From positions 1-64,000 of the IMG/VR virus record IMGVR_UViG_3300037245_001773: 64,000 nucleotides of DNA. One strand, given 5' to 3'. Under the pieces are notes generated by a model, which ran no database searches, was not told where the DNA came from, and was given only the letters and a program-made list of their open reading frames with translations. Each line of letters starts with the position of its first letter. The stretch's first letter is position 1. Made by a program: the position numbers and the translations under genes. Below, piece by piece: positions 3,231 to 47,958 of this stretch. The stretch is from a virus.

Positions 3231-3259
3231 CTTATATCCCCTGTGTTATAGATGGTTTA

Positions 3260-3541: not shown

Positions 3542-3542
3542 T

Positions 3543-5821: not shown

Positions 5822-5870
5822 AATAATTTTTATAAAGCCCCTTAATTAAAAGAGGCTGACGTTTATGGCA

Positions 5871-6083: not shown

Positions 6084-6177
6084 GTTGAAAAACTCCTTTA
6101 ACTATTTCAAAATCAGCTCGTTATTGAACTGTTGCAGTAATTAAAACAACAAATAGAGCAAAAGTCAACTATTATTT

Positions 6178-27194: not shown

Positions 27195-28490
27195 TTATAC
27201 GATCAGAGTTACATTAACGGTTAACTTCAGGACAGCCGAACCGATTCGGGCCGTTACAGGAATTGCATCAACGATACCTGCTTGCCTGTTTGATACAGAG
27301 GCGGAAAGAGCGTCAGGCATCTCAATGATGAAATCTTGAGTGTCGCTGAGAGGATTCAAGCCGGTTCTCCCGAGTTGGACATTCAGAGAACTTGCGATTG
27401 CTTTTCTGATAAGCTCAAAGCCTGAATTAGTGTATGGGATTTTCTCATTGGATATCTGAATATTGAAAATATCCGTCGCCATGTTCAATTCAATGAACAC
27501 TCTCACATTCTCATCAACTATCTGCCTTCCGGTAATTGTGAATCCGTCAGACGTTACCGAGATATTGTTTTGCGGCTCGGTATATGTGATATAAAACTTA
27601 TCTCTCAGAACTTGAATGTCTGACTCACTGTAAAGAGTCTTTGGAACTGCTACCTGACCTGCTAATGCTTTATAGGCCCATGAGCTTGTCCCGATCAGTT
27701 TTCCAAGCTGGAAACCCTCGAAAGCGGCCTCAGGGAAAAGATACCTTGCAAAGTAGTCGATTGCCCCGTTGTTAGCGTCTGCCCCGTCGCTTTCAGTTGT
27801 GGCAAATGTCCAGGTTCCATCTGTGGGAACTGATGCAACCACATGATTTCCGTTCAGGTCCGAGCCGTCTGCGCCGGAGAGAGTTACAGGATCACCGACC
27901 CTTAAACCGTGAGCCGCGTCGGTTACCGTGGCCACAAGAGAAGCGACGGTTATATCAACGTCTTCCACGTCAACCCCTGCTTCATGGTGCGCGTGAAGGT
28001 ACGTGTTTGTATTACCTGATGCATTCAAGATACTGCCAAGATCCGTTTCATCGTCCGAGTCGATCATTTCTGCATCGATTTCGATTGAAGCCCCGAACAT
28101 GATGTTTTTCCCAAGAGCCCAATCTGATATCTCTTCGAGTTCGGTTTCGTCTTTGGTCGTTGTCAGGAGCTGAAAGAATCCTCTGTCTTGCGCCCATATA
28201 TTGTCAAGCGATGCTGTGATATTTGCATCACCTGAATCAGTCCGCGCCACCTTGAAAGTTGAATTGTGGCCGGGTTGCTTGTAATGAGCGTTTGCACATT
28301 TAGCAATCTTGGTTGTGTTCGCAAAATCAGTTAACAGGTCAGTTTCAGAAGTGTAACTCTTTGTCAGGTTGGTGATTACGTCGGTTAGTAAGGGGTCGAA
28401 AACCATCGCAATATCAAGAGACGGTGCGGCTGCCACTTTATCAGCCAAGCTGACATTTACAACGACAGCATCAAAAAGAATGGAAGCCAT
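27195..28490 (-). CDS. Tail sheath protein (DUF3383-like)
   Basis: PEAA, G.SSWAYK.L.G, KIPYT.SG, R..G..., GSAV; precedes tube. Confidence 0.88.
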   Translation of the reverse strand: MASILFDAVVVNVSLADKVAAAPSLDIAMVFDPLLTDVITNLTKSYTSETDLLTDFANTTKIAKCANAHYKQPGHNSTFKVARTDSGDANITASLDNIWAQDRGFFQLLTTTKDETELEEISDWALGKNIMFGASIEIDAEMIDSDDETDLGSILNASGNTNTYLHAHHEAGVDVEDVDITVASLVATVTDAAHGLRVGDPVTLSGADGSDLNGNHVVASVPTDGTWTFATTESDGADANNGAIDYFARYLFPEAAFEGFQLGKLIGTSSWAYKALAGQVAVPKTLYSESDIQVLRDKFYITYTEPQNNISVTSDGFTITGRQIVDENVRVFIELNMATDIFNIQISNEKIPYTNSGFELIRKAIASSLNVQLGRTGLNPLSDTQDFIIEMPDALSASVSNRQAGIVDAIPVTARIGSAVLKLTVNVTLIV

Positions 28491-30677: not shown

Positions 30678-31832
30678 CTATATGCCGTAAGTTTGATCAA
30701 GAGCAACCGCGTAGCGCATTGTCACGCCACCGAATTCCATCTCTGAATCAAAGTTGAAAAGAAGCCCTTTGATTGACATCGGCATCCAAATGATACTTTC
30801 GACAACGTTTGCCTCTAGGACTCGGTTGTCTTTTGGATACACAATCATCAACTGACTTGAGCCGGTTCCCTGATCAGACAGCTCGAAAATAACCACGAAA
30901 TTGCTGATTCCGTTGACTGCTGAATTGTTCAGGATGTACTGCATGATCGACGTGTCAGTACCGGACGACATACGCTCGTTTGCAAGAAAGTCGAATCTTG
31001 CTTGACTCAGAGCAACGGTCATTCCAGCCTTGCCATAAACACCGTAAGTCCTGGTTCGAACCCTGGAAACAGAATCAACGACATCGTGCATGATCTCATC
31101 GTTGGTCTTTTCTCCGCCTGGCCATGTCCTGTCAGTACCGGACGCGCCCAGCGGTGCTTGAGTATTCGTCACGCCAGTAGCGTTGATAAATCCCTCAAGT
31201 CCAAGTGCTGAGTTTCCAAGGAACATCTGAGTTTGAAGCCGTCTTGCATAACCGAGTTCAACAGCGATCAAATCTTCAGTGCTCAGAGGTACGCCAGCCA
31301 TTGCAGCCTTGCGCAACTCTTGAGCTGTGTAGCCATAACCCAAAGCCCAAGAATAAACTTTATTCGAGAACTCAACGCCTTTGGCGTTTGCCCGTGGAAC
31401 GTTCGTGATGTTTCCGACTGCGGTCAGTTCAGCAAGTCCGGTATGATCGATGGTTCTGTATGTAATCCGATCAGTTCCGGGTGTGAACGTCTTGATTGGA
31501 AGAACTTCTTTCCAATTGTCCAGGGGCTTATGGATCACCGCGTAACGGGTGGGATCGATCTCTTCCAACTGACGGGCAAAAACGAGCCCTTCATTTGCAT
31601 CGAAACGACCGGATTTCTCCATGTTTTTGACAATCTCATCATCTGTCAATTCCCTGCTGTACTGGTTTTTGAAAGCGTTGTTTTCAATCGCCGCTTTCTC
31701 ATACTCAATCACCCGAAACTGCTCCTTAAGCTGATCGAGTCTGTACGGGGTGTCTTTCCCGTCAGGATTGATAGCTTTCATAATAAAGGGGTTGGCCTTT
31801 ATCTCAGCCATCAAAGTATCTAAATATTCCAT
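30678..31832 (-). CDS. Major capsid protein (DUF2184-like)
   Basis: FARQLEEID...Y, YT.QEL..A...G..L, F.G......GFIN, GGV..RY. Confidence 0.92.
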   Translation of the reverse strand: MEYLDTLMAEIKANPFIMKAINPDGKDTPYRLDQLKEQFRVIEYEKAAIENNAFKNQYSRELTDDEIVKNMEKSGRFDANEGLVFARQLEEIDPTRYAVIHKPLDNWKEVLPIKTFTPGTDRITYRTIDHTGLAELTAVGNITNVPRANAKGVEFSNKVYSWALGYGYTAQELRKAAMAGVPLSTEDLIAVELGYARRLQTQMFLGNSALGLEGFINATGVTNTQAPLGASGTDRTWPGGEKTNDEIMHDVVDSVSRVRTRTYGVYGKAGMTVALSQARFDFLANERMSSGTDTSIMQYILNNSAVNGISNFVVIFELSDQGTGSSQLMIVYPKDNRVLEANVVESIIWMPMSIKGLLFNFDSEMEFGGVTMRYAVALDQTYGI

Positions 31833-31841
31833 TTATCCCCC

Positions 31842-32351
31842 TTATGTTAGAGTTGAGCCAATTCCTGCCGCGATATCGAGGTAGAAAAGGACAATGTCAC
31901 CTGAGTCACCACCCTCAAGATAATATCCCGGGACTTGGCTGGCTTTGTTGGTATCCAGGTCAATTCTCCAGGTTTTGGCCGCCGAGTCGCCGGTGGTATG
32001 AGTAAAATATCCGATATCATTCTTGACCACCGTATCGCCAAGCAATACAGCGATAGTTCCCTTTCTCAGGAGCGTAATCGGCTGGTCGTCTTCGTACGAG
32101 TTGACCCCGGTGCTGAGAGCTTTCTCGTTCTGAAACTCCGACCAAATGGCGATCCCTTGGAATGTTTTCTGGGTAAAAGCAGCCTCCGCGCCTTTGACAT
32201 CAATTTCCGCCGTGCTTTGGACTGCTACCTCGCCCGGCTTCATATTGGTGTCGTCGTCAAGAATTCTGACCAGAGTTTCGGCGGTTTCGAGATCAACCAC
32301 TTGGCCGGCCACCAAACGATCACGGAATTCACTTACTGTTGTTTGTGTCAT
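31842..32351 (-). CDS. Capsid decoration/cement protein
   Basis: AGQ..D, G.VAV, F.GIA, Y......LR.G.IAV; between scaffold and capsid. Confidence 0.75.
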   Translation of the reverse strand: MTQTTVSEFRDRLVAGQVVDLETAETLVRILDDDTNMKPGEVAVQSTAEIDVKGAEAAFTQKTFQGIAIWSEFQNEKALSTGVNSYEDDQPITLLRKGTIAVLLGDTVVKNDIGYFTHTTGDSAAKTWRIDLDTNKASQVPGYYLEGGDSGDIVLFYLDIAAGIGSTLT

Positions 32352-33565
32352 TATCCGTTCCTCCATGCTCTGGCTTTATCGAATGCAGACGTTTCCCCTT
32401 CTTTGCCTGGTTCGAAACTGTGGTTATCAAGATTCTCCTTGGCGGCAATCTTCTTTTTTTCATGCTTATGATCCAGCATGTCAAACGCGGCCTTGGCGTA
32501 AACAGGATTTTCAAGATCAGCATGCTTTGACTCTGGCAATTTGCCTGCTTTCTTGACCACCCCTACAATGATTTCTTCGTTGGTCATTTTATCCGCACCA
32601 TCAAGCTTGTACTCGCTTGCTGTATTCAGATAACCTGACCTTTCCTTGACAAATTCATCCAGCTTTTCTTTCGGGATTGAATCTACATTCGCTCCCTCAA
32701 GCTCTGTATTCTTAGCTTCAAGAATATCGAACTTTGCCTTGGATGCTACTGCTTCATTTGTCAAAGAATCAAATTTCTCAACAGCTTCTTTCAGTGCAGT
32801 TGTGAAACGTTTCTCGCGCTTTTTCAGCTGAGTGATGACTCCCTTATATTCCTTAGGAAGCTCAACCTCTTCAGCATCAAGCCGAAAATCGCCAACCACT
32901 ACCTCCGGTAGCTCCCGTTGAATAATTTCCATGATTGATTCCTCTTTATGGTTTTCGCTGATTTCCTCGGAGTCGATTCTCTCAGCTTCAATGCCGTTTA
33001 TTGCGCTATTACTATCAAGACGGATACGGCATGTTTCCCCGCCCCTAGCGTTCTTCACTCTTGCTATGTGGTTGTATCTTATGTTTTTTTGACGTTTTTG
33101 AAACTCAACCCCTTCAAAGATACCCGATTCGTTTATTACATCACATCGATATCCGGCTGAAAGTTCTAAATCTTTTTCCCCTTCTATCGCTTTTATTTCT
33201 TTTCCATCAACAATTTTTAACGGTACTCTTGCATGATTTTCAACTCTAGAAACATCCTCCATTGACATTCCAAAAGTTTTATTAGCAGCGTTTTCAGGAG
33301 TAAACAGTTCAACATGATTTGATTGAGTTGTGTATGGCAGCCCCTTCAATGAATCCATTGTCTCGACAGAAAACACATCATCCGGGTGCCTTAATTCTCC
33401 CCACTCATTACCAATAGAGTCCCGGTACATGAAAACACCGGCTCTTGTCGGAGTCGAATCAACCCTCAAAAAACCGTTGCTGTCTTTTTTTGGGTCATCT
33501 ACTTTGAACGCTGGAACGTTGACCTTGAAAAAGTCATACCTGATTTGGCCCATCATTTTACTCAT
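32351..33565 (-). CDS. Prohead protease/scaffold (DUF2213-like)
   Basis: GFL.......R.GV..Y, ELR.P.DVF, ELS.GY, Q..I.YNH.A.V..ARGG...RLDS. Confidence 0.92.
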   Translation of the reverse strand: MSKMMGQIRYDFFKVNVPAFKVDDPKKDSNGFLRVDSTPTRAGVFMYRDSIGNEWGELRHPDDVFSVETMDSLKGLPYTTQSNHVELFTPENAANKTFGMSMEDVSRVENHARVPLKIVDGKEIKAIEGEKDLELSAGYRCDVINESGIFEGVEFQKRQKNIRYNHIARVKNARGGETCRIRLDSNSAINGIEAERIDSEEISENHKEESIMEIIQRELPEVVVGDFRLDAEEVELPKEYKGVITQLKKREKRFTTALKEAVEKFDSLTNEAVASKAKFDILEAKNTELEGANVDSIPKEKLDEFVKERSGYLNTASEYKLDGADKMTNEEIIVGVVKKAGKLPESKHADLENPVYAKAAFDMLDHKHEKKKIAAKENLDNHSFEPGKEGETSAFDKARAWRNG

Positions 33566-33842
33566 TGATTAACTCCCGTATTCCATTGATTAGCCACTCC
33601 CAAAAGTCCTTGAATTCAGAGATATACTGACGCATGAAAAAGAAAACCAGCCCGAACAAGGCAGCAAAAACCGCTATTCTGATGATGAAATTGTCATCCC
33701 TGGTCTTTGACTCTGACTGATTTAATGTAGCTCTCTCAGCCCTTGCCAGTGCAATTTTCAACAGCATATATATGATGCCTGCCATTGCAAGGATGTTGAA
33801 ATAATACCAAACTAGCCCGGTTTGAGCGTAACTAAGAAGCAT
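33558..33842 (-). CDS. Two-TM membrane protein (holin-like size)
   Basis: Two hydrophobic helices; coupled to its neighbours. Confidence 0.7.
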   Translation of the reverse strand: MLLSYAQTGLVWYYFNILAMAGIIYMLLKIALARAERATLNQSESKTRDDNFIIRIAVFAALFGLVFFFMRQYISEFKDFWEWLINGIRELINE

Positions 33843-34302
33843 TTTCCTTCCTCGGCATTCCGTAAAGTTTCGCGCCTGTATTCTTCTGGTTTCCCTTGAA
33901 GCATTGGGACAATATCACAGCAGACGTAATCAATATGTACCCGAATCCATTATCCCCAAATGGCGGAACAAATGACTCAGTTGGCCATAACATTGCGAAC
34001 GCTTGCCATTGCCAATAATATCCAGTAGCCCCACATATAAAAAACTTGGCTAAATAATTAGTTGTGTAGTCCACATATCTAGCTGTGAGAAAGCAAACGA
34101 TTACAAACTGCCATATGATAAGCCCAAAAGTTCCAGATTTCACGGGAACGGAACTGTCACCGAGATAACCAGTTGTTACCAGCCCGATCAAAAACCCGTT
34201 AAACAAGGCAACCATCAGAATAATATTAGGCGTTATATTATCTGTTGCGGTTCTCAGAAAATCATTTACACCCTGGAGGGCGTCATCTGCTTTGTCTTTC
34301 AT
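33832..34302 (-). CDS. Multi-pass (about 4 TM) membrane protein
   Basis: Four hydrophobic segments, basic C-terminus. Confidence 0.7.
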   Translation of the reverse strand: MKDKADDALQGVNDFLRTATDNITPNIILMVALFNGFLIGLVTTGYLGDSSVPVKSGTFGLIIWQFVIVCFLTARYVDYTTNYLAKFFICGATGYYWQWQAFAMLWPTESFVPPFGDNGFGYILITSAVILSQCFKGNQKNTGAKLYGMPRKENAS

Positions 34303-34303
34303 T

Positions 34304-34477
34304 TTACCTTTTCCTCAGTGCTCTGTTTAACGTGTTGCTTAACTCTTCATCTTTTTCTATTTCGTCATGTCCGGCCTCTACATATTTCGCAATGGTTGCC
34401 AAGTCGAACTTGTTTGATCTTCTCATTGACTTGTTCGTATCATATTTATTTGATTTTGATTTCCTAACGGTTGTCAT
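34304..34477 (-). CDS. Small basic protein, 57 aa (manual)
   Basis: MTTVRKSKSNKYD...; ATGA coupling and GGAGG RBS. Confidence 0.55.
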   Translation of the reverse strand: MTTVRKSKSNKYDTNKSMRRSNKFDLATIAKYVEAGHDEIEKDEELSNTLNRALRKR

Positions 34478-35181
34478 TCTTTGTCGTCCTCCACAAAGTC
34501 CTCAATTACATCTGGACCGATTACACACCTAAACCGTTTTTGATCTTCTTTATTCTTGATTCTTTTGACTCTCCATGATTTAACAAAAACCGCTTCCATT
34601 TCTTCGTCTGGCAGAAACCCGTCGAAATAATCCTCACAATAATCATCGGCTGACATGCTGAAAAAAGTCGAGTGATCCAAGTTAAGTCTTGCGTTATCTT
34701 TTCCCCTCGCCGCTGATCTCATCACCATAAAATCTTGCTCATCATATATAGCGTATGCGAATATTTTCGAGAACTTTATTTTCTTGTCAAATTCAACATT
34801 GAACTTCGATTCTAAACTTCGGACTCCCTTGGTATGGAAAAAAGGGTGCATGTTTAGTTTTGTGGATTTATGTCCTGATTCTTTTGCGAATATCTTAAAG
34901 AATCCCACATAATCATCTTTTGCCCCCGCATCCGCCAATCCACCGGCAATGTCTACACTCTTTGTATAATTCATTGTGAGTGCCATCATTGCTACTGTAA
35001 AAACACCCAAGAACATAAACCTTGCCACCTGATAACCAGCCGCTTTCTTGCCGAGTTCACATATCGTGTTCAAGAGTGGATGCCTTATCAAGAAATCAGA
35101 ACGTCCTGTATCGGTGTCGAGTCTGGTCTCCTCTGTCTGATTTGTATCGCTGAATTCATCCAAATTAAATAAATTAGACAT
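34474..35181 (-). CDS. Single-TM membrane-anchored protein
   Basis: FMFLGVFTVAMMALTM helix followed by a globular domain. Confidence 0.7.
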   Translation of the reverse strand: MSNLFNLDEFSDTNQTEETRLDTDTGRSDFLIRHPLLNTICELGKKAAGYQVARFMFLGVFTVAMMALTMNYTKSVDIAGGLADAGAKDDYVGFFKIFAKESGHKSTKLNMHPFFHTKGVRSLESKFNVEFDKKIKFSKIFAYAIYDEQDFMVMRSAARGKDNARLNLDHSTFFSMSADDYCEDYFDGFLPDEEMEAVFVKSWRVKRIKNKEDQKRFRCVIGPDVIEDFVEDDKE

Positions 35182-36382
35182 CTATCGCCCCTGACTTTTG
35201 CGCTGTTTGGATTGCCTTGTCATTTGATGCAAATTGAAAAAGTTCATCAATCGGGTTGCACTCGTATCTTGTGGATCCGCACGCTCTGGAATTATCCAGG
35301 TTGACATCATGCTTTTGTTCGTCTTTTTTGATCAGTTTGCTGCGTTCATCCAGTACCCCTGACCCCTTATCAAAAATTCTCACGGGTGCGCCGATACTTG
35401 TCACACTCAGACCAGTGTTATATTGCATGAGATAGACATCGTTATTCTTTACAATGTCCCCGTTCATAATCCCAAAACCTGTAAACATTGGCTTGGAATT
35501 GAAGAAAACAGGATCCAGCATTGCAGCACAGACAGCTATGTAAATCGGCATATCCGGAAATGTCTTTCTTGTGATTGTCATGGTCCTACGTGAAATATCC
35601 CATACCGGAATATAAACATCTTTCTGGCATTCCTTGACTGTCAGATCTCGGTCTGTTCTCCCTCCTCCAGCACTCTTTGCCTTGAAGTAATTCCGGATAA
35701 CTTTTTCCGCTTTCTTCGATTTGATTCTATCATTGTCTCGGTTCAGGAGAATGGAAGACGCTATTTCAACACCGACTTGAACGTATCCTTTTCTCACGAC
35801 ATTTAGAAAATCGCTCAGATACCACCGATTTAATTCATCTGCACTGTAACCGAGCGCACAACTGAACGCCTGTAATGAACCGAACCCGGCACCTGAAAAA
35901 ACATCAAATTCGGTTACTATTGAACCGTACCTTTCCGCGATCCTTCCTTCCAGTCTATGCTGAATTACTATCTGGCCGATTGTGCGGGTAAAATATGACT
36001 GATCGAATGAAAGCGCCTTGCCTGTAAATTTCTGGTTAAGTGTTTCCTGGCTCTTTTGAATCTCGGCCCTGAAATATTGGTTCCCCGCAATCGACTTTTT
36101 GACGGGGGGTTCATCATATTTTTTTGGTGCTGTGGTTGCTTGCTCGTCAATGATAAAATGATAACTCGCGTTCATCAGGTAGCAATCCTGAAAGGTGATT
36201 TCCGCAATGTTGTCTTCCGGTATCAGGACAATTTTAGGCGGCATTATCCCGGTTCCGGAAGTACATCTTATATATACAGGAGTACCGGCAAATTCAGATC
36301 CTACCCTGTATATTCTGCTATTCGGTATCTTGATGCGAAATTCTTGCCCTAGCTTTATCTGCTGGTTCGATTGCATTATCAA
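35174..36382 (-). CDS. Patatin-fold protein with degenerate catalytic motifs and an N-terminal beta-rich domain
   Basis: ALSFDQSY, FDVFSGAGFGS, ALGYSADEL, VYIPVWDI, AAMLDPVFF, IMNGDIVKNN, VTSIGA in patatin order. Confidence 0.75.
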   Translation of the reverse strand: MIMQSNQQIKLGQEFRIKIPNSRIYRVGSEFAGTPVYIRCTSGTGIMPPKIVLIPEDNIAEITFQDCYLMNASYHFIIDEQATTAPKKYDEPPVKKSIAGNQYFRAEIQKSQETLNQKFTGKALSFDQSYFTRTIGQIVIQHRLEGRIAERYGSIVTEFDVFSGAGFGSLQAFSCALGYSADELNRWYLSDFLNVVRKGYVQVGVEIASSILLNRDNDRIKSKKAEKVIRNYFKAKSAGGGRTDRDLTVKECQKDVYIPVWDISRRTMTITRKTFPDMPIYIAVCAAMLDPVFFNSKPMFTGFGIMNGDIVKNNDVYLMQYNTGLSVTSIGAPVRIFDKGSGVLDERSKLIKKDEQKHDVNLDNSRACGSTRYECNPIDELFQFASNDKAIQTAQKSGAIDV

Positions 36383-36818
36383 TCTCGGTTATCATTGTTT
36401 TAATCTGGCTTTCTTCTGTAGATTCTACCAGGTAAGATAAATAGCATGCCACATTTTGATTTACCAGCGTTTCGTCTGAGAAAAAAGCCTCTTTCTGGTC
36501 ACTGTGTCTTATTCTTAAAATTCCACCGTTGACATATAGATAATGGTGACCGTCGAAAATTAGTCCTTTTGTCCTCGGTGTTATTTCGTTCAACTCTTTC
36601 ACAAAGTCCGTTACTTTCAAAGGACTTTCAAATGCCCCGGTTCCAAATAATCTGTCATTCTCGAAATATTGTGGCGGCACGCTTCTGTTGGGAGTCAGAG
36701 ATTGTTCCCTTATGTTCGTTGCCTTTAATCCATTCTGCACTGATTCCAAAAACCAAGGATTCCTTGTCGGGTTCTTTTTATCTGGTCTTTCCTTGTATGT
36801 GGTTAATAAGTTTTTCAT
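36318..36818 (-). CDS. Hypothetical protein
   Basis: ATGA coupling to the gp7 gene. Confidence 0.65.
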   Translation of the reverse strand: MKNLLTTYKERPDKKNPTRNPWFLESVQNGLKATNIREQSLTPNRSVPPQYFENDRLFGTGAFESPLKVTDFVKELNEITPRTKGLIFDGHHYLYVNGGILRIRHSDQKEAFFSDETLVNQNVACYLSYLVESTEESQIKTMITEIDNAIEPADKARARISHQDTE

Positions 36819-37855
36819 GCTGCTTTTTTCCTCGCCTCAACAGTATCGGGATGGCTCACACCTGTTATTTCGTCATAAATTGCCTGTGGCCAACAACGAT
36901 CTTGAATATCAGTTCCGGCATGATGCCTTTCACCTGCTCTTTTTCCCTTGAAAACTGTGACCGGGGGATCATTCCACTTAATTATCACCCCTTCTAGCCG
37001 TTTATGGTCTGAATATCCGTCTGAATTTGCCAATGATCTGACCCTGCCATCCTGCCTTGTTCTCCAAATATACTCAGTAACACCGGACTTTCTTTGGCGG
37101 GCCTCTTCAATATTGGCCGTCAACTTTCCGATCTGGTCACGGGCAATTAATCTGGCTCTATTTTTTGCGTTTCCTGTCAATTCCTGAATCTTCGCTCTTG
37201 CCGTGGCTGTCAATTCGCCTTTCCGTACAGCGTCTTTGGTGATTTGCTCTATCTGAGAAAAGTATTGACCCGGGACTGTTTTGATTAAAGAGATGTTTGC
37301 CTGCAAAGAATCTTGAATAAATTCATCCACGTTTAACTGTGCCGGTAATGGCTTGGTTCCGGTCTGTCTTTCGAATTCATTAACAAATTGCGTCTCTGTT
37401 TTTTCTTTGACTCTGTTTAAAAATGGTTTCACGGTTTTATTCAATGATCTGGTAAAAATCTCTTGCCTTGGTTCCGTGTTGGGTTTTACTGATTCGCCGA
37501 AAAACATGCTCTTCATTCTTGCGATCAATGCGGCTACCAGTGTGATTCCTGCCAGTTCTTTAAATTGTACGTCTAGCCTGATTTCTTTTATAAACGGGAT
37601 GCCGATAAGGTCACAGGCTTCTTTTTTACTTATGAGACTGGTGTCGAATCGTTCTGTTTTATGGTTCGTTAATCTATCGAGTTCAGGGAGTAAGACTTTT
37701 TTTGTTATTTCATCGATTTTGTTTATCTCTTTGATGATTGCCTTTCCGAATTCCATTTCGATCATGCGATTCTCGGGGGGTTCTTTGAAAGCGCGGGTCT
37801 TTCTCCTGTTTGATAGTTGTTTTTTGATTCGCTTTCTTTGTGCTTCAGTTGGCAT
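36815..37855 (-). CDS. Minor head protein (SPP1 gp7 / Mu gpF family)
   Basis: RARLIARDQ..KL, GV..YIWRT..DGRVR, H..LEG...W..PP. Confidence 0.9.
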   Translation of the reverse strand: MPTEAQRKRIKKQLSNRRKTRAFKEPPENRMIEMEFGKAIIKEINKIDEITKKVLLPELDRLTNHKTERFDTSLISKKEACDLIGIPFIKEIRLDVQFKELAGITLVAALIARMKSMFFGESVKPNTEPRQEIFTRSLNKTVKPFLNRVKEKTETQFVNEFERQTGTKPLPAQLNVDEFIQDSLQANISLIKTVPGQYFSQIEQITKDAVRKGELTATARAKIQELTGNAKNRARLIARDQIGKLTANIEEARQRKSGVTEYIWRTRQDGRVRSLANSDGYSDHKRLEGVIIKWNDPPVTVFKGKRAGERHHAGTDIQDRCWPQAIYDEITGVSHPDTVEARKKAA

Positions 37856-38681
37856 TAATGGCTCTTAATGGTTTTGTTAGTGCGTCTTCTGTTGACCACC
37901 CGCGACCAATCCTGTTGCTTATTACTTTTTTTGGTATCCCAGTTTTATTAGACCACTCCATGGCTGTCGCAGTAATTCCATTGTATGTGTGCAGGGCTGG
38001 CTTCTTTATTTGTTTTGTTATGGCATCTTCGAAGCTCATTCCCTTTCGCATTCTGCTGTCAACAGTTTCCGGCTTTATGCCGTTCCTCCTGCACCATTGT
38101 GCAAATGTCAGTGTTTGATTTTCATACGTATAAAATGTATTTGATCTTCTGTTGTTTGCCTGCTCCATTGGAGTTGCCCACTTGCAATTGTCCGGAGAGT
38201 ATCCCTTGTCGTTGTCTTCCCTTTCTATTGTCATTCCGTCCGGGACGTCTCCCATGTCTGAGTAGAAATTTTCAAACTTTGCCCACCTCTCACAGACTTT
38301 TATACCTCGGCCACCGTAGTATTTATAGTCTTTGTCATTCTCGTTGTGGCACCTATTCTTTATTTTTAGCCACCTTCTATATGACTTTGTTATTGTGCCA
38401 TTTGATGAGTGCCCGTGTGTTGTTGCCCTTTTAATCAAAGACTTAATTTTTCCGCAGCCACAACTCTTCGTGTGCCCACTTATTAAATCATTTGATGCAA
38501 CCTTTGTAATAGACCCACAATCACAAACGCACAACCACATTATTTTTTTATTTTCGTAGTCAGTTCGGTACAGAACGTCGATATCTCCAAATCTTTTGCC
38601 GGATAAAATGTATTTTAATTTTTTTCTCCTAATAGTATTAGGACCTTTCCTGGATTGTTGTAGCTCAAATAATATGCTCAT
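37845..38681 (-). CDS. HNH-type homing endonuclease-like protein
   Basis: WLCVCDCG, KSCGC, YGGRGIKVCERW, IER.DN..GYSPDNC.WAT; two C-terminal HTH-like repeats. Confidence 0.9.
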   Translation of the reverse strand: MSILFELQQSRKGPNTIRRKKLKYILSGKRFGDIDVLYRTDYENKKIMWLCVCDCGSITKVASNDLISGHTKSCGCGKIKSLIKRATTHGHSSNGTITKSYRRWLKIKNRCHNENDKDYKYYGGRGIKVCERWAKFENFYSDMGDVPDGMTIEREDNDKGYSPDNCKWATPMEQANNRRSNTFYTYENQTLTFAQWCRRNGIKPETVDSRMRKGMSFEDAITKQIKKPALHTYNGITATAMEWSNKTGIPKKVISNRIGRGWSTEDALTKPLRAINAN

Positions 38682-38695
38682 AGTTTTCTGTTTAA

Positions 38696-39565
38696 TTACA
38701 AGTCTTTGTAATCACTAGAGGCGGCGTCGGTAATTGCTTTCTGTGCATCGCTCCCCTCAATCCCAAGCTCTGAAACCTTGAATTGAACTGTGCTCGAACG
38801 GGGTAATACCCAATAAATTCTGTTGTTTGCGGGATCGTAAGTGCCGTTTACTTTCTGTCCGCTATAGAAAACTCCACTCAACTCAGCAGGCAAGCTGATG
38901 ATTTCAGCAGTTCCAGTGAGGCTTGCAAGGCTGACAGTCGGACGTTGGCTGGAAACGAAAATTGAGACCTCATTTTCTCCCGCCCCACTACTCGGGGTAA
39001 TTACAATCGCGGCCCCGGCGTAAGTGTCGGTTGTCGTTCCGGATACGGTTAAATCTTCTGGGACTGTAAAAGAGTATTGAGGTTTAGCGAGAACAACTTT
39101 ATATGCTCCATCATCCAAGGCAAATACAACTATGCCGCTTGAATTGGTGTTTTTTGAGTCAAGCTTTACCGTTTGGGCTGCATTCCATACTTGAACTTCT
39201 ACGCCTAGAATTGGGACTGGAACAGCATCGTTAACAGTGATCGTGACAGAATTAGCACCGGGACCAGAAGAGGCTGATTCAACCCATCCACCGACACGGA
39301 AGAAACCGGAATACTTCTTTGTGGTGGCGTCCACCATCGTCCAATAGTATTCAGCGAATGCGGTCGGAGGCGTTACCAGATCAGAAAGGGGATAGTAGAA
39401 AACTCCTGTTGTGCCAATTTGAACAGCTGTTCCGGTTGTCATTGCTTCCGGAGTTGCGGACCCGTCTTTATATACAGCGACGGTTATCGCATCAAGATTG
39501 GCGAATACCCCGAGAAAGGAGTAGACTTTTGATGATGCAAATTCAGAGAGTTTTATTCTGTCCAT
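38696..39565 (-). CDS. Beta-rich (Ig-like) putative virion protein
   Basis: P..GV.VQV...T...G...F.LDDG.Y.V carboxypeptidase-regulatory-like pattern. Confidence 0.7.
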   Translation of the reverse strand: MDRIKLSEFASSKVYSFLGVFANLDAITVAVYKDGSATPEAMTTGTAVQIGTTGVFYYPLSDLVTPPTAFAEYYWTMVDATTKKYSGFFRVGGWVESASSGPGANSVTITVNDAVPVPILGVEVQVWNAAQTVKLDSKNTNSSGIVVFALDDGAYKVVLAKPQYSFTVPEDLTVSGTTTDTYAGAAIVITPSSGAGENEVSIFVSSQRPTVSLASLTGTAEIISLPAELSGVFYSGQKVNGTYDPANNRIYWVLPRSSTVQFKVSELGIEGSDAQKAITDAASSDYKDL

Positions 39566-40752: not shown

Positions 40753-43026
40753 TTATACCCCTATCATTATCACATTATCTGGTAATGTTGCGTGGCTTGA
40801 TGTTTTCCATAATTCATTTGCAATAGCTCCAGATCCTATCTGTGTCGCTCCTGACTTCATATTCGTCAGCAATGTGGGGTTGGTAAGGTCAAGCGTTTGA
40901 TTTGGGGACCTGCCAGCCAATAAAAGGTATTGAGCGTGATCATCGTCGGCCAAACCCGCCATATCTCCGTGATCACTTACACCCGCATTAGCAAATAACT
41001 GATCAAACGCTGAAGATATTGTTGCTGTGTCCGATGATTTTTGAAATGTAAACCTTGCAGCTAATAAAGATGTTTCTGTTATTTTTGACGGTAAGGATGA
41101 ACTGGGAACCGCTTCATTGTCAGCCGCAAATTCCGAATTATGTTGAGCGCGTCCATAAACCATAACAATATGGTCATCTGGTTCAATAAAAAAGAATAAG
41201 TTGGCCCACTTGTTATTGCTTAAAGTGGTCAATGTTCCAGCATTGTCATATTGTAAATTATTCCATTGGGATGCTGCCGCTTCCTCTTGTCCTCCCGCTG
41301 AATATGTTGAAAAGGTATCTGCACCCGAAGTGTTGAAAGTGGATATGGGATATTCAGTTCTGCCCCACCAAATCGATCCTGACGTCACGGAAACATCTCT
41401 ATTAGCATCTCCTGACTGTCCGAAAATCAATCCACCTTTTCTTTTATCTCTACTTAAACCAAAGACCCGTCTGATAAATCTACCGGCCTGACCTATGCTT
41501 TCTTGGAGTCTAACTCCCAATGAAAAAACATGTTCGACAGCTCCGTTTTCTTTTGTGACTACTCCAATTTGAATTTTATCAGGAGTTTCTAAAAACTCAT
41601 CTGTGCTTAATGAGATAACGCCTGAATCATCGACGTAAACATATTGAGTAGTGTTATCTGTAACCGCTATACCTAGTGATTCTGACCACTTGAAAGACTG
41701 CAATTCAGCGTTAGGATCATTAGTTGTGCGGATAAACCCTGATCCGGCAGATACGTCAAGAGTTCCTGATCCACCATCACTTAAGATGCCACCCAGGAAG
41801 AAACCGGATGATCCTGTATTGTCTAGATACTCTTGTAATTGATCTACTGTTGGGGTGCCTGATCCTTTGGCAATAGACACCGAACTGCTTGGAACTTCAG
41901 AAAAGTTTGTACCCTTGAATGTTGGGCTTGATCCGCTGGTTACATCTTGGTCAATAAGTGAATGATCACTGCCATCTGACCCACGATGAGTATCATTAAG
42001 CGCTACGTTGGCGTGATCTGATCCGTTCCCAGATCTATGAGAATTATTTAAAACAACGTCGGAATGGTCTTTTCCGTCACTTGACCGATGAGTATCGTTT
42101 AGAGCAACGTTTGCATGGTCAGACCCATTTCCGGTTCGATGACTATTGTTCAGTACTAGGTCGGAATGATCCTTGCCATCTGAAGTTTTGTGTGTCGTAT
42201 TTAAAGCAACATCTGAGTGATCAGAACCGCTCCCCGATCTATGAGAGTTATTAAGAACTACATCTGAGTGATTCTTCCCGTCCGAACTTCGATGAGTTGT
42301 ATTTGCGTCAACATTCGTATTGGCGTTGACTCTCGCTTCAGTATAATAAAGATTCGATCCCTCCTCAACATCGTCTGTATTTTGAGTTTCCCATATTGCG
42401 TCCCCTGCCTCGCCTGAATCTTTTGTTAAATGCTGGCCTGCTGTCCCGTCTGGAGGCAGACCCAGTTTCCAATCTGACGTACCTAAAATCTTGGTAAATT
42501 CGGCAATGATCTCTTTTGCATCGATTCCAGCATGAGAGGGTAGTTTGATTTTGCCTGACTTCAATTGCTTGACAAGTTCGATAATATCTTGCTTGCGGTC
42601 TTTAATCAGTTGGGTAACGTCGATTAAATCAGCTATTTCTTTTTTGTCTCTGTCTGTCAGTGGGAGGGGTTGAGCGTCTTGACCGGGCTCTCCCTGCTCA
42701 CCGGGAATGCCTTGTTCACCATCTTTGGGTACTTCGATTTGATCAAGTACGGATTTTTGAAAGGCTTCTTTTACTTCAGGGGAAAATATTTCATCCCGAT
42801 AAAAGTCAACTCGCTTTTCATCGTCTGTGGATTTGACTTGATCTAAAAGCTGTTTGACTATTTCTGATGAATCTAACTTAGGGGTTTGGATTGAGGATTG
42901 AACGCGCGCAACTATATTGTCAATTTCAGATTGATCGAAACGTATTTTTCTTTTGTCTAACTGTTCGATTATCTCTGATATAATTTCAAACTTTAATTTT
43001 TCTCTTGATTCAGGGGTTGCTTTCAA
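40753..43026 (-). CDS. Large fibre-like protein with collagen-like and His-rich repeats
   Basis: Short GXX run, TDDV.EG.NLYYT.AR, 7 x 17-aa repeats, DH....LADDDH.QY motifs. Confidence 0.8.
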   Translation of the reverse strand: MKATPESREKLKFEIISEIIEQLDKRKIRFDQSEIDNIVARVQSSIQTPKLDSSEIVKQLLDQVKSTDDEKRVDFYRDEIFSPEVKEAFQKSVLDQIEVPKDGEQGIPGEQGEPGQDAQPLPLTDRDKKEIADLIDVTQLIKDRKQDIIELVKQLKSGKIKLPSHAGIDAKEIIAEFTKILGTSDWKLGLPPDGTAGQHLTKDSGEAGDAIWETQNTDDVEEGSNLYYTEARVNANTNVDANTTHRSSDGKNHSDVVLNNSHRSGSGSDHSDVALNTTHKTSDGKDHSDLVLNNSHRTGNGSDHANVALNDTHRSSDGKDHSDVVLNNSHRSGNGSDHANVALNDTHRGSDGSDHSLIDQDVTSGSSPTFKGTNFSEVPSSSVSIAKGSGTPTVDQLQEYLDNTGSSGFFLGGILSDGGSGTLDVSAGSGFIRTTNDPNAELQSFKWSESLGIAVTDNTTQYVYVDDSGVISLSTDEFLETPDKIQIGVVTKENGAVEHVFSLGVRLQESIGQAGRFIRRVFGLSRDKRKGGLIFGQSGDANRDVSVTSGSIWWGRTEYPISTFNTSGADTFSTYSAGGQEEAAASQWNNLQYDNAGTLTTLSNNKWANLFFFIEPDDHIVMVYGRAQHNSEFAADNEAVPSSSLPSKITETSLLAARFTFQKSSDTATISSAFDQLFANAGVSDHGDMAGLADDDHAQYLLLAGRSPNQTLDLTNPTLLTNMKSGATQIGSGAIANELWKTSSHATLPDNVIMIGV
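41956..42312 (-). repeat. Seven tandem 51-bp (17-aa) coding repeats
   Basis: N(T/N/D)(T/S)H(R/K)xx(D/S/N)G(K/S)(D/N)H(S/A)(D/N)V(V/A)L, alternating A/B units. Confidence 0.9.
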
Positions 43027-44771
43027 ATCTCTATTTCCTGATCTAGTTTTTTGCTGATTTCATCAAGTCCCTTCTGAATATCGTCTATCTCTTTCGCATG
43101 GTCGATCTGTTCCGGGATTTTAACGTTGACAATTGGGGCTTCTACGATTATCTGTGGTTCGAGTTTTATGATTTGGTCTTTCTTTTCTTCTGGCTTCTCT
43201 GGAATTTCCGGTGGAATGACTTGATTCTGTTTTGCGGCCTCATCACTGATGGCCTTTTCCATCTTGATGCCTTCGAGTTCTTCAGCCATTGCGTCGGCCT
43301 CTTCCGGGGTGAACTCGTCTTTCATTTCTTCCCGGGCTTTGAAATCGATGATCATAGATTCAAGGTCAACCGTGTCCTTACTGAAACGAGATATTCCGAC
43401 TTCTTCAGGACTTACAACGTTTAAATTAACGTAAATTTCATCCTTTTGAGCTACAGTGTAGGCTGTATCGGCCTTGTCTTTGTCTGATTGTTCCTGTAAT
43501 GGGTTGAATACGTATGACGGTAATTCTGTCAGCATTCCGACTGCCATATTCACAAACGTCATGAACTCATTTAACCATGGCCTGAGTTGAATCTCTTGTT
43601 TTGAGTGGATCCCATTGAAATATGTTCTAGTGTCTGATTCAGAAGATGTTCCCCCTAGATTGCCTGACTCAGAAGAGAAAAATCTTGATTTGGGGATACT
43701 TGCGGCCCCGCATATTGCCTCTGTGTACCTGTCCCATAGGTCGGCAAGACCGGTTATTGGCGTTCCTTTGCGCTCCATTTTCTCTGAATCGGCATCATAC
43801 ACATTGAGACGGTTCGACGTCATATTAAAATGAGTCATAGCCAAGCGGTCAAGTATATAGTCAGGGTCGCTTCCGGTCATCACTTTTTCTGCCAGGCCCT
43901 TCATTCCGAGATAATCCTGGGTGAAGGTTTCCATTGTGCTGTTGGATTCCGTGACACAGATACCATAGTCTCTCAGAGCTGTATAAACTGCCTGCAGCTC
44001 TGAATCATCCCACCCTCTGTTGAGAGTACGTGGTGTTTGAGTGGTGAAACGTCCGTCCATGCGGATAAGTCTGGATTCGTGAACGTTCAGCGTCTTGCCG
44101 CCTGCGGGTTCCCTGATAATGACTTGGTAATGTTCAGGTTGTAACCATTTGGGGTCGTTTACGTCTTGATACCATGTAACAGGGATTGCAAACCATGCCG
44201 GAACCTGCCTAACCCACCTGATTTCTGAGACTTGATTTTCATTGAGAGGTTCCCAGAAATCATCAGGACCGCTAACGTCATCAAAATTAAACACGGTCAC
44301 AGAACCACCGGACGCGCGCGCGAGGGCTATGGACTGGAAAGCTGTTTGCCATAACTTGAACTGCTCATTCAGGAGATCATCGAAGTCTTCTACCTCTTTT
44401 TGGATTTTTATTTGATCTGTGGCTTCTTTTTCTTCACCTTCTTTTGATTCGTCGTCGTCGTTGTGCTTGTATGAGATACCATTGCGGGTCATGTCTTCGC
44501 TCGGCGCGTCTATAATTTTTCTAGAAACCCAATCAGACTGGTAAAGATCTTCTTGTTGTACGGTGTCTACTTTTGGAATGCCGGTGTATTGTGAGTTTGC
44601 CACGGGATGTTGGGCGCGCGTTCCAAATCCGGTTGATGGATTGGTCCATGCGTCCATTCTTTTGGAACGTGGGATTCTTAAGGCTGGGTCGATGTCTTTG
44701 AGCGGTTTTAGGTCGTAACCCTTTGAGGCTAACAGTAATCTTTCGTCTGCGAATGCGTTGGATTGCGCCAT
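43023..44771 (-). CDS. Portal protein (DUF1073-like)
   Basis: D.W.N..TG.GT, LY...W..RKIID.P.EDMTR, VHESRLIR, IP.SR.F...G..GG..SD...Y, FNPL. Confidence 0.92.
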   Translation of the reverse strand: MAQSNAFADERLLLASKGYDLKPLKDIDPALRIPRSKRMDAWTNPSTGFGTRAQHPVANSQYTGIPKVDTVQQEDLYQSDWVSRKIIDAPSEDMTRNGISYKHNDDDESKEGEEKEATDQIKIQKEVEDFDDLLNEQFKLWQTAFQSIALARASGGSVTVFNFDDVSGPDDFWEPLNENQVSEIRWVRQVPAWFAIPVTWYQDVNDPKWLQPEHYQVIIREPAGGKTLNVHESRLIRMDGRFTTQTPRTLNRGWDDSELQAVYTALRDYGICVTESNSTMETFTQDYLGMKGLAEKVMTGSDPDYILDRLAMTHFNMTSNRLNVYDADSEKMERKGTPITGLADLWDRYTEAICGAASIPKSRFFSSESGNLGGTSSESDTRTYFNGIHSKQEIQLRPWLNEFMTFVNMAVGMLTELPSYVFNPLQEQSDKDKADTAYTVAQKDEIYVNLNVVSPEEVGISRFSKDTVDLESMIIDFKAREEMKDEFTPEEADAMAEELEGIKMEKAISDEAAKQNQVIPPEIPEKPEEKKDQIIKLEPQIIVEAPIVNVKIPEQIDHAKEIDDIQKGLDEISKKLDQEIEI

Positions 44772-44922: not shown

Positions 44923-45291
44923 TTAACCGGCCAGGGCTGCCAGATCTCGTTTTTGTGTGTTGTTTGCCGTCAGGGGCGATAAATCCAGACCGATCCCCGT
45001 TCGGTGTGCCGCCTCCCAATGGTTAAGAATTCCGGCAATTAGGGTTTCGGACCTTGTAATTGTATTTGGCTCCGTTTTGCTGCTGGCTTCGTTGGGGATA
45101 ATATAGATAGTCTCGTTGTCGAATTGACTAACATCACGACAATGAACGGTGTTGGCCGTTGACTGTCCCATAAAAACGGGGGTAACGAATTCCGGCACGC
45201 TTTGTGACATTCCAAGTTCAGCCGCAAAAATTACGGGACTGAACAAGATTGCCAACATGAAGGCCAGAATACTGAATAAACTTAATTTCAA
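44923..45291 (-). CDS. Exported hypothetical protein
   Basis: Signal peptide MKLSLFSILAFMLAILFSPVIFAA; GAGG RBS. Confidence 0.6.
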   Translation of the reverse strand: MKLSLFSILAFMLAILFSPVIFAAELGMSQSVPEFVTPVFMGQSTANTVHCRDVSQFDNETIYIIPNEASSKTEPNTITRSETLIAGILNHWEAAHRTGIGLDLSPLTANNTQKRDLAALAG

Positions 45292-45484
45292 TTTAACCTC
45301 TTTGCAAAGATATTAAAGGAGGCGATTAACCGGATCGCCTTTTCCGGTCGTACTGTATGTTTTAACTATCTCATATTGAATACCTTTTTGTCAAGTAATT
45401 TTTAAGGCAGGTTAAAGCTAATCCTCAGAACACCGAAGAACACAAACAGAGCAAAGCAGACTATTAGCATTTTAGATTCAAAGC

Positions 45485-45748
45485 TCATTTTGGCGGGTCC
45501 GGTAATGGCATCCAGTGAGTTACTGGATAATTTAACTCACATTCACACTCATTTTCGGAAACAAAAACATTGTCTGGGAAATCCATATAATTTTCCTTGT
45601 AAAACTCACTATCTGCTGGATTGATGAGCCTCCCAACTGATTGACCGCCCGCCTTACTATATACTAAGATAGGAACGCTTTTCCAGCATTTAGTGAGTTT
45701 TAATATTCCACCGGGCGGTAACCGTTCTTTGACGTTTATCCAGTTCAT
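45485..45748 (-). CDS. DUF551-family protein
   Basis: M.WI.VKERLP...VTHWMPLP.PP; start trimmed. Confidence 0.85.
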   Translation of the reverse strand: MNWINVKERLPPGGILKLTKCWKSVPILVYSKAGGQSVGRLINPADSEFYKENYMDFPDNVFVSENECECELNYPVTHWMPLPDPPK

Positions 45749-45767
45749 ATAATCTTGTATGGAGGTA

Positions 45768-46187
45768 TTATTTATCAACCGCCTTATGAGTAAGCAGACC
45801 GATTGCGAAAGGAAATAGCAGAATAAACTGAAGCGGTATTTTGTGAATATACGCCAAATAGGAGCACACAAAGCAAACGACAGGTAATGCCCAACCGTGG
45901 GTAAACCCTCTATGTTTGTCTGAGCTGAAGGCCATATATACGATGCCCGTCACCGCTGAATGTCTGTCTTTCCCGTACCACATAAGCAGAGCCGCGATGA
46001 TAATTCCAGCCCATGCGAACATCCTTGACGGTATACTTCCGGTATCGATATCGCTTGCCAGGGAACCGATTACAGTCACCCCTGCAAACGCTAATCCTGC
46101 AACTGGATTCTTTGTGATGTACCAGGCAGTTGCTCCGGTTATTAGTCCGGTTGCGGTTCCTGCTAATGCGTGCGCTCGAAAATTCAC
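45768..46187 (-). CDS. Membrane-bound metal-dependent hydrolase (YdjM-like)
   Basis: H..AG, GSL..DIDT.S, HRGFTH, G.LTH...D. Confidence 0.85.
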   Translation of the reverse strand: MNFRAHALAGTATGLITGATAWYITKNPVAGLAFAGVTVIGSLASDIDTGSIPSRMFAWAGIIIAALLMWYGKDRHSAVTGIVYMAFSSDKHRGFTHGWALPVVCFVCSYLAYIHKIPLQFILLFPFAIGLLTHKAVDK

Positions 46188-46214
46188 TTTATCCCCTATT
46201 TGATTGATGTTTTA

Positions 46215-46493
46215 TTAGTGCCTTTGTAATGCTGTTTCACTTGTCCCTGTTGACGTTTTTGGTGTTTCTGTTATTGTTTCGGGTCCATCCTGGTAGAAAT
46301 CTTCCACGTCATGCCCTGGATTCTCGAATGGATTAACGCGAGTGTTCCAAGCTTTGATTAAGTCCCGCCTACTGTCCCTGTCCATTATTATCTCGCAGCG
46401 TTCACATTCTATCCACCATCCCGAGTCTGCCGGTTCTGGTCCCACTGGTTTTGTATCGCAAAAAGGACACGGCTTTAATTCTTCACCTATCAC
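46215..46493 (-). CDS. Lar-like restriction alleviation zinc-finger protein
   Basis: ELKPCPFC...C..C...AWNTR. Confidence 0.75.
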   Translation of the reverse strand: MIGEELKPCPFCDTKPVGPEPADSGWWIECERCEIIMDRDSRRDLIKAWNTRVNPFENPGHDVEDFYQDGPETITETPKTSTGTSETALQRH

Positions 46494-46702
46494 AATAACC
46501 CCCTCAATCTCTCAATTATACTCAATTTTCTGACAGGAAACCTTCTATATTCGTGGCCACTGCTCTCAGTTTGTCAGGTATTGTGGTTTCATCTTCTATA
46601 CCCATGAACTGTACTTTTGCCACATACCCGTCTAACTTAAATACTAACTCCTGTCTTATTACTTCACCATCCAGTTTGTTTTTATTGACTGTTATTTCCA
46701 TT

Positions 46703-47383
46703 TTACATCCACCCCTTTAATCTTTCAATAATCGTTAATTGTCTGACAGGCTTCACACCTAACGCTTTCATGTTCCGGATGATGTGTTTGACTGCCATGA
46801 TTTTATTATAATAGTTTTGCGTCTCCGATGGCAAGGTGGATTTGCCTAATAGCCACGATTTTACTCGACTGGCTCCGCAGTTATAAGCGAGTATGGATAA
46901 CTTGGCTGTTTCTTTGTGGTATCTGAATTGCTTGAATAGGATCCCCATATGTTTTGCGCCGAGTCGGGTGTTTATCACTGGATCTTTGCCGTACTTCAAT
47001 ATTTTGGCCGGTGTGGGTACCATTGTGAATGTTTGGCCCATGATTGTCTTCTCTTTGGTCATGTAATGCCGAATATTGAAGGGCATGAGCTGCCATAAGC
47101 CGATTGCGTTTGATCTGCTGATAGCGTCAGGCTTGAATGATGATTCCACAGCTGGAACAGCGATCAACCATCTCGGCAAGTCTTCTTTGTCCAGGTATTT
47201 GAACATCATTTTCGAGTAGCCCACCATGCGCCCGAGAATTAATTCCAGGTCTTGCTTGCAAGCTCGGTTCTTTTCAAGGGTTGTGCAATCTCTGAGATAA
47301 AAATCTGTCCATTGTTCGATGCTGAAAACGGTTGCATTTAGATGGAATGGAATGAGCAAAAAAAGAATGATCAAGATTCTCAT
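46703..47383 (-). CDS. Lytic transglycosylase (SLT domain, MltD-like) with signal peptide
   Basis: VESSF...A.S...A.GLWQLMP, AYNCG, LP.ETQNY..KI. Confidence 0.9.
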   Translation of the reverse strand: MRILIILFLLIPFHLNATVFSIEQWTDFYLRDCTTLEKNRACKQDLELILGRMVGYSKMMFKYLDKEDLPRWLIAVPAVESSFKPDAISRSNAIGLWQLMPFNIRHYMTKEKTIMGQTFTMVPTPAKILKYGKDPVINTRLGAKHMGILFKQFRYHKETAKLSILAYNCGASRVKSWLLGKSTLPSETQNYYNKIMAVKHIIRNMKALGVKPVRQLTIIERLKGWM

Positions 47384-47608
47384 TTATTTGTTTTGAGGTG
47401 GAATTCTGACGACTGCTTGCATTGGAAACATGTGAACCATGAAACTAACATCACCTCTTTTATCTTCAAGACGCTTTCCAGGCGGAAGCAAATCTTTTTC
47501 GATGTCTTCCCAGTCTCGATCTATTAATGATCTTTTCAACCGGTCTTCTATCATTTCTTCAAATGTCTTGCGCGGTAGTGCGTCTGCTTTAATTTTGTTT
47601 GGCTTCAT
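47384..47608 (-). CDS. Hypothetical protein
   Basis: Coupled ORF. Confidence 0.5.
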   Translation of the reverse strand: MKPNKIKADALPRKTFEEMIEDRLKRSLIDRDWEDIEKDLLPPGKRLEDKRGDVSFMVHMFPMQAVVRIPPQNK

Positions 47609-47958
47609 TCCTTATTCTCTCCCCCTACGCCTCTGTTTATGCGGTCTTTCGTGCGACTTTCGAGTAATGCGATTGCCATTTGAGCGTATCCAAGAGCAAC
47701 TTCATTTTCGGTGCATGGAAAGTCCCCTGCCTGAAATCCCTTGAGTCTATGAATACAGATAGCGAATAAATCTTCTATCTGGCAGCCGTTGACACCGTTT
47801 TCTTGAATTGGGCCTTTTTGAAAGTAGACGAATTGATCAGTCATTTCTTTGTTATCATCGTCTGACGATTTTACCATGTACCGATGACAAGCGCCGCCTT
47901 CTCCTGGTTCATCCATTACAATTACTTTTGCATGCTCTGTTTCTCTGATTGTTTTCAT
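47605..47958 (-). CDS. tad1: Tad1-like cyclic-nucleotide sponge (anti-Thoeris/CBASS)
   Basis: G.GGA.H.Y, FQKG, DL..I...RLK.FQAG.F...EN..AL, R..DRI.R.V.G, matching Tad1 as I recall it; start trimmed to the ATG with GAGGAG RBS. Confidence 0.8.
   Translation of the reverse strand: MKTIRETEHAKVIVMDEPGEGGACHRYMVKSSDDDNKEMTDQFVYFQKGPIQENGVNGCQIEDLFAICIHRLKGFQAGDFPCTENEVALGYAQMAIALLESRTKDRINRGVGGENKE

Follow-up and report, generated by a model that had tools for sequence, protein, structure and literature searches.

The first 64,000 nucleotides of IMG/VR virus record IMGVR_UViG_3300037245_001773 (hereafter the window; the record is complete, with 72,208 bp and direct terminal repeats) encode, within the late genes of a myovirus, a patatin-fold protein that lacks the catalytic residues of patatin phospholipases and is embedded in a conserved gene cassette together with membrane proteins. 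This pseudo-patatin represents a phage-only lineage which is deep and well conserved, and what is new is the presence of a patatin-fold pseudo-enzyme inside a phage membrane cassette. The analysis itself establishes the fold, the family-wide loss of the catalytic residues, purifying selection, and the conservation and relocation of the cassette. From these we infer, as the tentative reading that we find most plausible, that the pseudo-patatin is a lipid- or membrane-binding subunit, devoid of catalysis, of an envelope cassette expressed late; it would probably bind membranes rather than cut them and might act at the envelope in physical partnership with its neighbours.

On the sequence level, the match of the pseudo-patatin to the Pfam Patatin model (PF01734) stays below threshold (E 1.2e-3; 19.6 bits versus a gathering cut-off of 27.7), a precomputed PF01734 match is carried by six of 33 homologues, and searches of the PDB sequences with the single sequence and subsequently with the family profile gave nothing significant, the best non-significant match of the profile being CapE (E 0.21), with GTSTG aligned to GaGFG. 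An AlphaFold2 model built on 27 relatives (predicted local distance difference test 83.8; predicted template modelling score 0.72) has as its top Foldseek matches lipases of CBASS, the antiphage signalling system based on cyclic oligonucleotides, namely 9kh6 (1.2e-13), AbCapV 8zr9 (3.8e-13) and CapE 9ion (6.1e-13). Plant patatin (3.5e-11) comes next, then VipD, iPLA2beta, PlpD and ExoU, and giant-virus viral patatins match at 3.7e-12 and weaker. The patatin set contains 29 of the 30 ESM Atlas feature matches, and the model displays the patatin alpha/beta fold with its central sheet and nucleophile elbow. On the modelled structure the patatin fold, as claimed by a first-pass annotation made from the nucleotide sequence alone, is thus not in doubt. 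As matches to the pseudo-patatin, CapV, CapE and plant patatin lie within about one Z unit of one another, and this structural tie means that the structure indicates a patatin but cannot single out CapV.

The extent of the catalytic loss was assessed on 33 relatives at 36-100% identity, retrieved from 5.8 billion clustered proteins, and on 61 matches at E<=1e-3 that a profile search returned from 1.84 billion representatives. The sequences fall into three tiers, which were aligned to the family profile for column counts: the near family (P0001-P0044), a distant set (P0045-P0068; 420-490 amino acids, aa) and 25 weak matches (P0069-P0093). All three catalytic elements are replaced, by DQSY (aa 127-130), GAGFG (aa 164-168) and NGD (aa 307-309), exactly as the first-pass annotation had read them. 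The G-G-G-x-[K/R]-G motif of the oxyanion loop is absent and reads D-Q-S-Y-F-T-R-T, with the Arg alone retained; in this DQSYxxR region D, Q and R each occupy 43 of the 44 near-family rows and position 129 is Ser in 39 and Cys in four, while the Arg (R133) persists as R or K in 17 of the 19 distant rows with a residue there. The nucleophile column is Gly in 43/44 near and 21/24 distant rows, the remainder being gaps in fragments, so that Gly is found in all 64 family rows with a residue and Ser in none; among the weak matches, 22 of 25 carry Ser. Asp of the dyad is likewise absent from 44 near and 24 distant rows (0/68), the column containing N (26), A (6), T (4) and others in the near family and predominantly L (15) besides others in the distant set. 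Retained, in addition, are P291 (the Pro of ASxxxP), K312, N313 and N314, and the profile positions that hold the C-terminal R...D motif in CapV-type sequences are filled by R372 and D379.

Against the 82% identical copy on contig L001 the ratio of nonsynonymous to synonymous substitution rates (dN/dS) of the pseudo-patatin is 0.068, compared with 0.053 for the neighbouring Mu F-like (MuF) head morphogenesis gene and 0.158 for the head maturation protease gene, values which are rough because dS is around 1.5 and near saturation. The gene is under purifying selection. The catalytic loss is old and universal in the family, and the protein is an old, maintained pseudo-enzyme with respect to the canonical Ser-Asp mechanism, the replacement of catalytic residues noted by the first-pass annotation being family-wide. 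The reading frame is intact, with 402 codons open, and the extra beta-rich N-terminal domain noted earlier corresponds to a beta-sandwich at aa 1-85. The likely start is the ATG at 36376, two codons after the TTG at 36382, which gives a 400-aa product; it is preceded by GAG(A) and agrees with one 400-aa database member.

The elbow Ser is also missing in three of the 25 weakest profile matches (P0077 and P0080, GSGFG; P0089, GVHFS), and the N-terminus of P0077 resembles the N-terminal beta domain of the pseudo-patatin. Dead patatins may consequently exist beyond the two clades considered here.

In the phage of the window, the gene order is MuF, a 166-aa soluble protein, the pseudo-patatin, a 235-aa single-pass membrane protein, a 57-aa basic open reading frame (ORF), a 156-aa polytopic membrane protein, a 94-aa protein with two transmembrane (TM) segments and the DUF2213 head maturation protease/scaffold, with successive overlaps of 4-65 nt. 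The 166-aa gene and the pseudo-patatin overlap by 59-65 nt in different frames, as they do by ~60-70 nt on L001 and L003, and promoter-like or terminator-like sites show no excess. The genes thus appear co-transcribed and translationally coupled, in line with the co-expression with head genes that had been suggested. The 166-aa gene lies directly upstream in all nine near-clade contigs with upstream DNA (L001, L002, L003, L008, L010, L012, L013, L015 and L018; L007 and L009 are apparently the same contigs as L001 and L002), and the 156-aa gene downstream in all six with enough DNA. For the 235-aa gene, tblastn gives a match in five near-clade contigs but none in L012 and L013, both of which retain a gap of suitable size. 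Neither the 235-aa nor the 166-aa partner belongs to a Pfam, PHROG or PADLOC family; the 235-aa protein has no Atlas match, and the 166-aa family none among PDB sequences (best E 0.12). A complex prediction for the pseudo-patatin and the 166-aa protein (score 0.00, mark 0.32) weighs neither way. On L003, a relative of 40% identity, a ~5-kb insert at 1630-6460 with an anti-repressor (phrog_63) and a 689-aa phrog_1735 gene on the opposite strand separates MuF from the cassette, which is intact.

A second clade at 23-24% identity (L005, L006, L020 and L021) carries the corresponding cassette at other sites. In all four loci a small soluble ORF (141-196 aa) is followed by the pseudo-patatin (435-449 aa), a single-pass protein (269-306 aa) and a polytopic protein (166-217 aa). 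The cassette follows baseplate wedge and tail-fibre genes in L005 and a 1,556-aa protein (phrog_9880, unknown function) plus a tail-fibre-like protein in L006; in L021 its neighbours are sheath/tube and baseplate hub, and in L020 it is flanked by a tail protein and a hub-like gene. Profile comparison shows the polytopic proteins of both clades to be homologous (hhalign probability 94.9%, E 4.8e-8, 126 columns), with the caveat that composition can inflate hhalign scores for pairs of membrane proteins. The occurrence of the same cassette at different late-operon sites indicates that the unit of selection is a mobile late-expressed cassette, which pairs a cytoplasmic pseudo-patatin with inner-membrane proteins; the pseudo-patatin is always accompanied by the same membrane partner. 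One second-clade single-pass protein contains a formylglycine-generating enzyme (FGE)/lectin-like domain at the Pfam threshold. In three of the four second-clade loci the cassette is longer (noted at L005 11027-11503, L006 10154-10666 and L020 10468-10959): it is joined by a YdjM-like inner-membrane protein (PF04307; in L005 E 1.9e-7), a protein with a signal peptide and a two-TM protein, and the resulting island, directed at the envelope, comprises up to eight or nine genes.

With respect to distribution, no relative among cultured phages emerged: 50,697 deposited phage records gave no match to megablast of positions 33000-39000 or to tblastn with the pseudo-patatin, P0048 and P0045, the nearest phages by capsid protein being 26-27% identical. 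The near clade has no match in one genome per species for 185,579 species, and a second-clade search of genome contigs returned two contigs of metagenome-assembled genomes. Single-protein locus scans with P0058, P0060 and P0045, from other distant sub-clades, gave no locus, and no PHROG family is matched by the pseudo-patatin.

The mechanism that we propose starts with the descent of a cytoplasmic patatin-fold protein from CapV-type phospholipases, in the course of which both residues of the Ser-Asp dyad disappeared together with the oxyanion loop rich in Gly, while the fold, R133 and scaffold motifs were kept. Such a protein might bind membrane phospholipid, or dock on the inner membrane, without cleavage, and would act as one subunit together with the small soluble, single-pass and polytopic membrane proteins, expressed late with the structural genes. 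The cassette would then be a self-contained mobile module whose target, late in infection, is the host envelope, with lysis timing, membrane stabilisation or exclusion as candidate roles. Positive hints for a membrane-binding role come from the membrane partners and from the phosphate-binding Arg that the family has kept; lipid binding, one of the ligand options of the first-pass annotation, is in keeping with this R133.

Several observations weigh against this proposal. Besides the composition caveat on the polytopic match, the small upstream proteins of the two clades are only weakly alike (hhalign probability 55%, E 1.2e-4, 104 columns) and their single-pass proteins have no homology detectable by hhalign (E 0.65 and 0.046). 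In the near clade the pseudo-patatin behaves as a core gene of the head module, which would fit a morphogenetic or packaged protein too, and two residues conserved close to the old active site, S129 (S 39, C 4) and C375, may mean new chemistry instead of none. Finally, a lysis role for the cassette is not needed, as the phage has a separate likely lysis set in an SLT-domain protein and a 77-aa two-TM ORF. The likely lysis region spans 44923-48188 on the minus strand, upstream of the portal gene; PF00959 and PF01510 were sought in the phage and gave no match. A lysis cassette as such was set aside, the SLT-domain protein and the two-TM ORF being encoded elsewhere in the phage.

The closest phage precedent is the patatin-based lytic cassette proposed for Wolbachia phage WO, in which a patatin-like gene is accompanied by holin-like genes (PMC9203015). 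The WO patatin is presented as a phospholipase A2, the phage having no endolysin, and the cassette is itself a hypothesis. Common to both phages is a patatin-like gene beside small membrane genes, in or next to structural modules; in contrast to phage WO, the pseudo-patatin lacks the dyad, the phage encodes an SLT-domain protein, and the partner genes are unshared as far as compared.

Among the killing arms of CBASS immunity, patatin lipases are the most common, and phage anti-CBASS proteins include the Acb1 nuclease and the Acb2/Acb4 sponges, the known sponges being single small genes. The first-pass annotation had interpreted the pseudo-patatin as a possible decoy or sponge against CBASS. 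On such a reading a dead CapV homologue would either sequester the cyclic nucleotide or join host CapV in its assemblies and block its filaments, which are driven by cyclic GMP-AMP (cGAMP), or its docking at the membrane. We regard effector mimicry of this kind as unlikely on balance. The nearest catalytically intact relatives are CapV-type: the PADLOC model for CBASS phospholipase effectors, PDLC00758, is matched by the pseudo-patatin at E 3.2e-7 and by 21 of the 25 weak matches, in which the elbow Ser is usually present, at E<=1e-10 (best 3.6e-90), and a mixed profile of 13 family members and 21 weak matches scores CapV-type structures at 185-188 bits compared with 129 for CapE, 120 for plant patatin and 79 for PlpD. 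By sequence, CapV-like, the label already given, is a fair description of these relatives. On the other hand, PDLC00758 is matched in six of 14 control genomes and is hence not CBASS-specific by itself, the identity of the pseudo-patatin to CapV amounts to 13-16%, and CapV, CapE and plant patatin are structurally tied. The plant and bacterial patatins (Pat17 1oxw/4pk9, PlpD, ExoU, VipD, iPLA2beta), toward which the sequence signal is weaker than toward CapV-type proteins, are active Ser-Asp lipases.

In the AbCapV filament, 3'3'-cGAMP lies between three protomers; its contacts are F147, K149, D159 and E207 in the first protomer, L272, F275 and R279 in the second, and E328, T331 and K332 in the third (PMC12480259). 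Mutation of F147, K149, D159, E207 or R279 abolishes filaments and activity, filament formation persists in the S58A and D192A mutants, and CapV action requires filament assembly (PMC12480259). As catalytic mutants are filament-competent and CapV needs filaments, assembly could in principle be poisoned by a dead subunit; a ligand site formed by three protomers, in turn, fits poorly with a monomeric sponge. Direct inhibition of CapV by a virion protein is reported for ICP3 Gp15, an example of a protein made late or carried in the virion that acts on CapV itself (bioRxiv 10.1101/2025.07.23.666291). Acb1, Acb2/Acb4 and Gp15 would share a possible target pathway with the pseudo-patatin; they are single proteins of other folds, without fold or sequence relation to it, and none is an effector homologue.

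Mapping of the AbCapV residues via the mixed profile over 43 rows, which is of low confidence in loops, places K149 at R272, with a basic residue (K or R) in 41/43 rows, which is in favour of mimicry. The other assignments, of equally low confidence, argue in the opposite direction: F147 maps to I270, merely hydrophobic; D159 to F275, with F or Y in 33/43 rows and the Asp lost; E207 to a gap in 43/43 rows, or by eye to N322; R279 to R366, Arg in 22/43 rows; and W255 of the dimer interface to a gap. With this caution, the mapped residues do not depict a preserved nucleotide pocket or homotypic interface. Compared with CapV and CapE (AbCapV 8zr9/9jeh, CapE 9iom, the cGAMP-activated lipase 9kh6/9kh7), the pseudo-patatin is devoid of the nucleophile Ser, the dyad Asp and the GGG loop, matches the cGAMP contacts only in part, and adds an N-terminal beta-sandwich. 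It resides in a phage late operon with membrane-protein partners and head genes as neighbours rather than beside a CD-NTase (cGAS/DncV-like nucleotidyltransferase), and a search for the CD-NTase model SMODS (PF18144) in the complete 72,208-bp record gave no match. A single-protein sponge does not explain the conserved multi-gene membrane cassette, since membrane partners accompany the pseudo-patatin in two deeply diverged clades, and the lack of near-clade matches in the species genomes also speaks against mimicry. Of the earlier interpretation, the dead patatin fold, the CapV-type relatives and the coupling to head genes therefore stand, and the CBASS decoy or sponge has found no positive evidence. 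An unlikely variant would unite the two ideas: phages may have acquired an immune lipase of the CapV type, inactivated it and linked it to inner-membrane proteins of their own, so that late in infection the dead copy occupies membrane docking sites of CapV or caps its cGAMP-induced filaments, which would constitute the first effector-mimic, dominant-negative CBASS inhibitor, carried in a mobile multi-gene cassette. No phage-encoded dead effector homologue or dead patatin was found described in the literature searched.

That the protein has become a new enzyme, with a relocated catalytic centre of S129/C, C375, H358 and D127 acting on a lipid or another substrate, seems unlikely. Conservation is highest in the former active-site loops (FDQS, R133, G136-Q137, GxGFG and Q171), and the alternation of Ser and Cys at position 129 is a pattern known at nucleophiles. 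C375 is present in 41/44 near rows and in 14 of the 17 distant rows with a residue, and it maps next to AbCapV E300, which contacts R21 (PMC12480259). In the distant clade, however, position 129 is Ser in one of 19 rows and position 358 His in five of 17, and R372 and D379, which CapV-type sequences share, look like ancestral scaffold and not like new chemistry. Very unlikely is a minor head, internal or ejected protein working or packaged with MuF and the DUF2213 protease/scaffold, as the fixed place between these two genes in all near-clade contigs and a substitution rate similar to that of MuF would suggest, because the tail/baseplate location of the second-clade cassette makes a head-associated reading less likely, the partners are integral membrane proteins and PHROG structural families gave no match.

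To our knowledge, phage patatins have so far been discussed solely as lytic enzymes. A lineage that kept the scaffold and dropped the chemistry may show how phages reuse an immune-effector fold for handling of the host membrane, and if the decoy interpretation were true, a new class of immune antagonist would emerge. Either way, the cassette is a defined unit of four to six genes, accessible to synthesis and to testing in laboratory strains.

The coordinates of the genes and motifs are collected in Table 1. All long ORFs of the window are on the minus strand, and the phage also encodes a cement protein.

Table 1. Pseudo-patatin, its domains and replaced motifs, the cassette and other genes of the phage (coordinates of the window).
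Feature	Position	Strand	Remark
Pseudo-patatin gene	35174..36382	-	open ORF, 402 aa from TTG 36382
N-terminal beta-sandwich domain	36128..36382	-	aa 1-85, without specific structural relative
Patatin-fold domain	35177..36025	-	aa 120-402
DQSY	35993..36004	-	aa 127-130, replacing GGG oxyanion loop; R133 after DQSY retained
GAGFG	35879..35893	-	aa 164-168, replacing GxSxG; G166 at nucleophile position
NGD	35456..35464	-	aa 307-309, replacing DG[AG]
Mu F-like head morphogenesis protein	36815..37855	-	upstream flank
166-aa soluble protein	36318..36818	-	overlaps pseudo-patatin start; always directly upstream
235-aa single-pass membrane protein	34474..35181	-	TM ~52-70; 8-nt overlap with pseudo-patatin stop
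57-aa basic ORF	34304..34477	-	ORF only
156-aa polytopic membrane protein	33832..34302	-	homologous to second-clade polytopic protein
94-aa two-TM protein	33558..33842	-	
DUF2213 head maturation protease/scaffold	32351..33565	-	downstream flank
Large terminase	55749-57350	-	
77-aa two-TM ORF	47955-48188	-	near SLT-domain gene
SLT-domain protein, N-terminal TM	46703-47383	-	candidate lysis gene
139-aa two-TM ORF	45768-46187	-	likely lysis region
122-aa ORF, N-terminal TM	44923-45291	-	likely lysis region
Portal	43023-44771	-	
Major head protein	30678-31832	-	
Sheath	27195-28490	-	
Baseplate wedge	20397-21794	-	

Two further genes were noted on the minus strand upstream of the cassette. Between the portal and an Ig-like gene, a 757-aa protein (40753-43026) is encoded that matches no Pfam or PHROG family. 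An HNH endonuclease gene (37845-38681; phrog_374, E 3.1e-68) is located between the Ig-like gene and MuF and looks like a mobile insertion, because the gap between the latter two genes measures only ~80-560 nt in L002 and L013.

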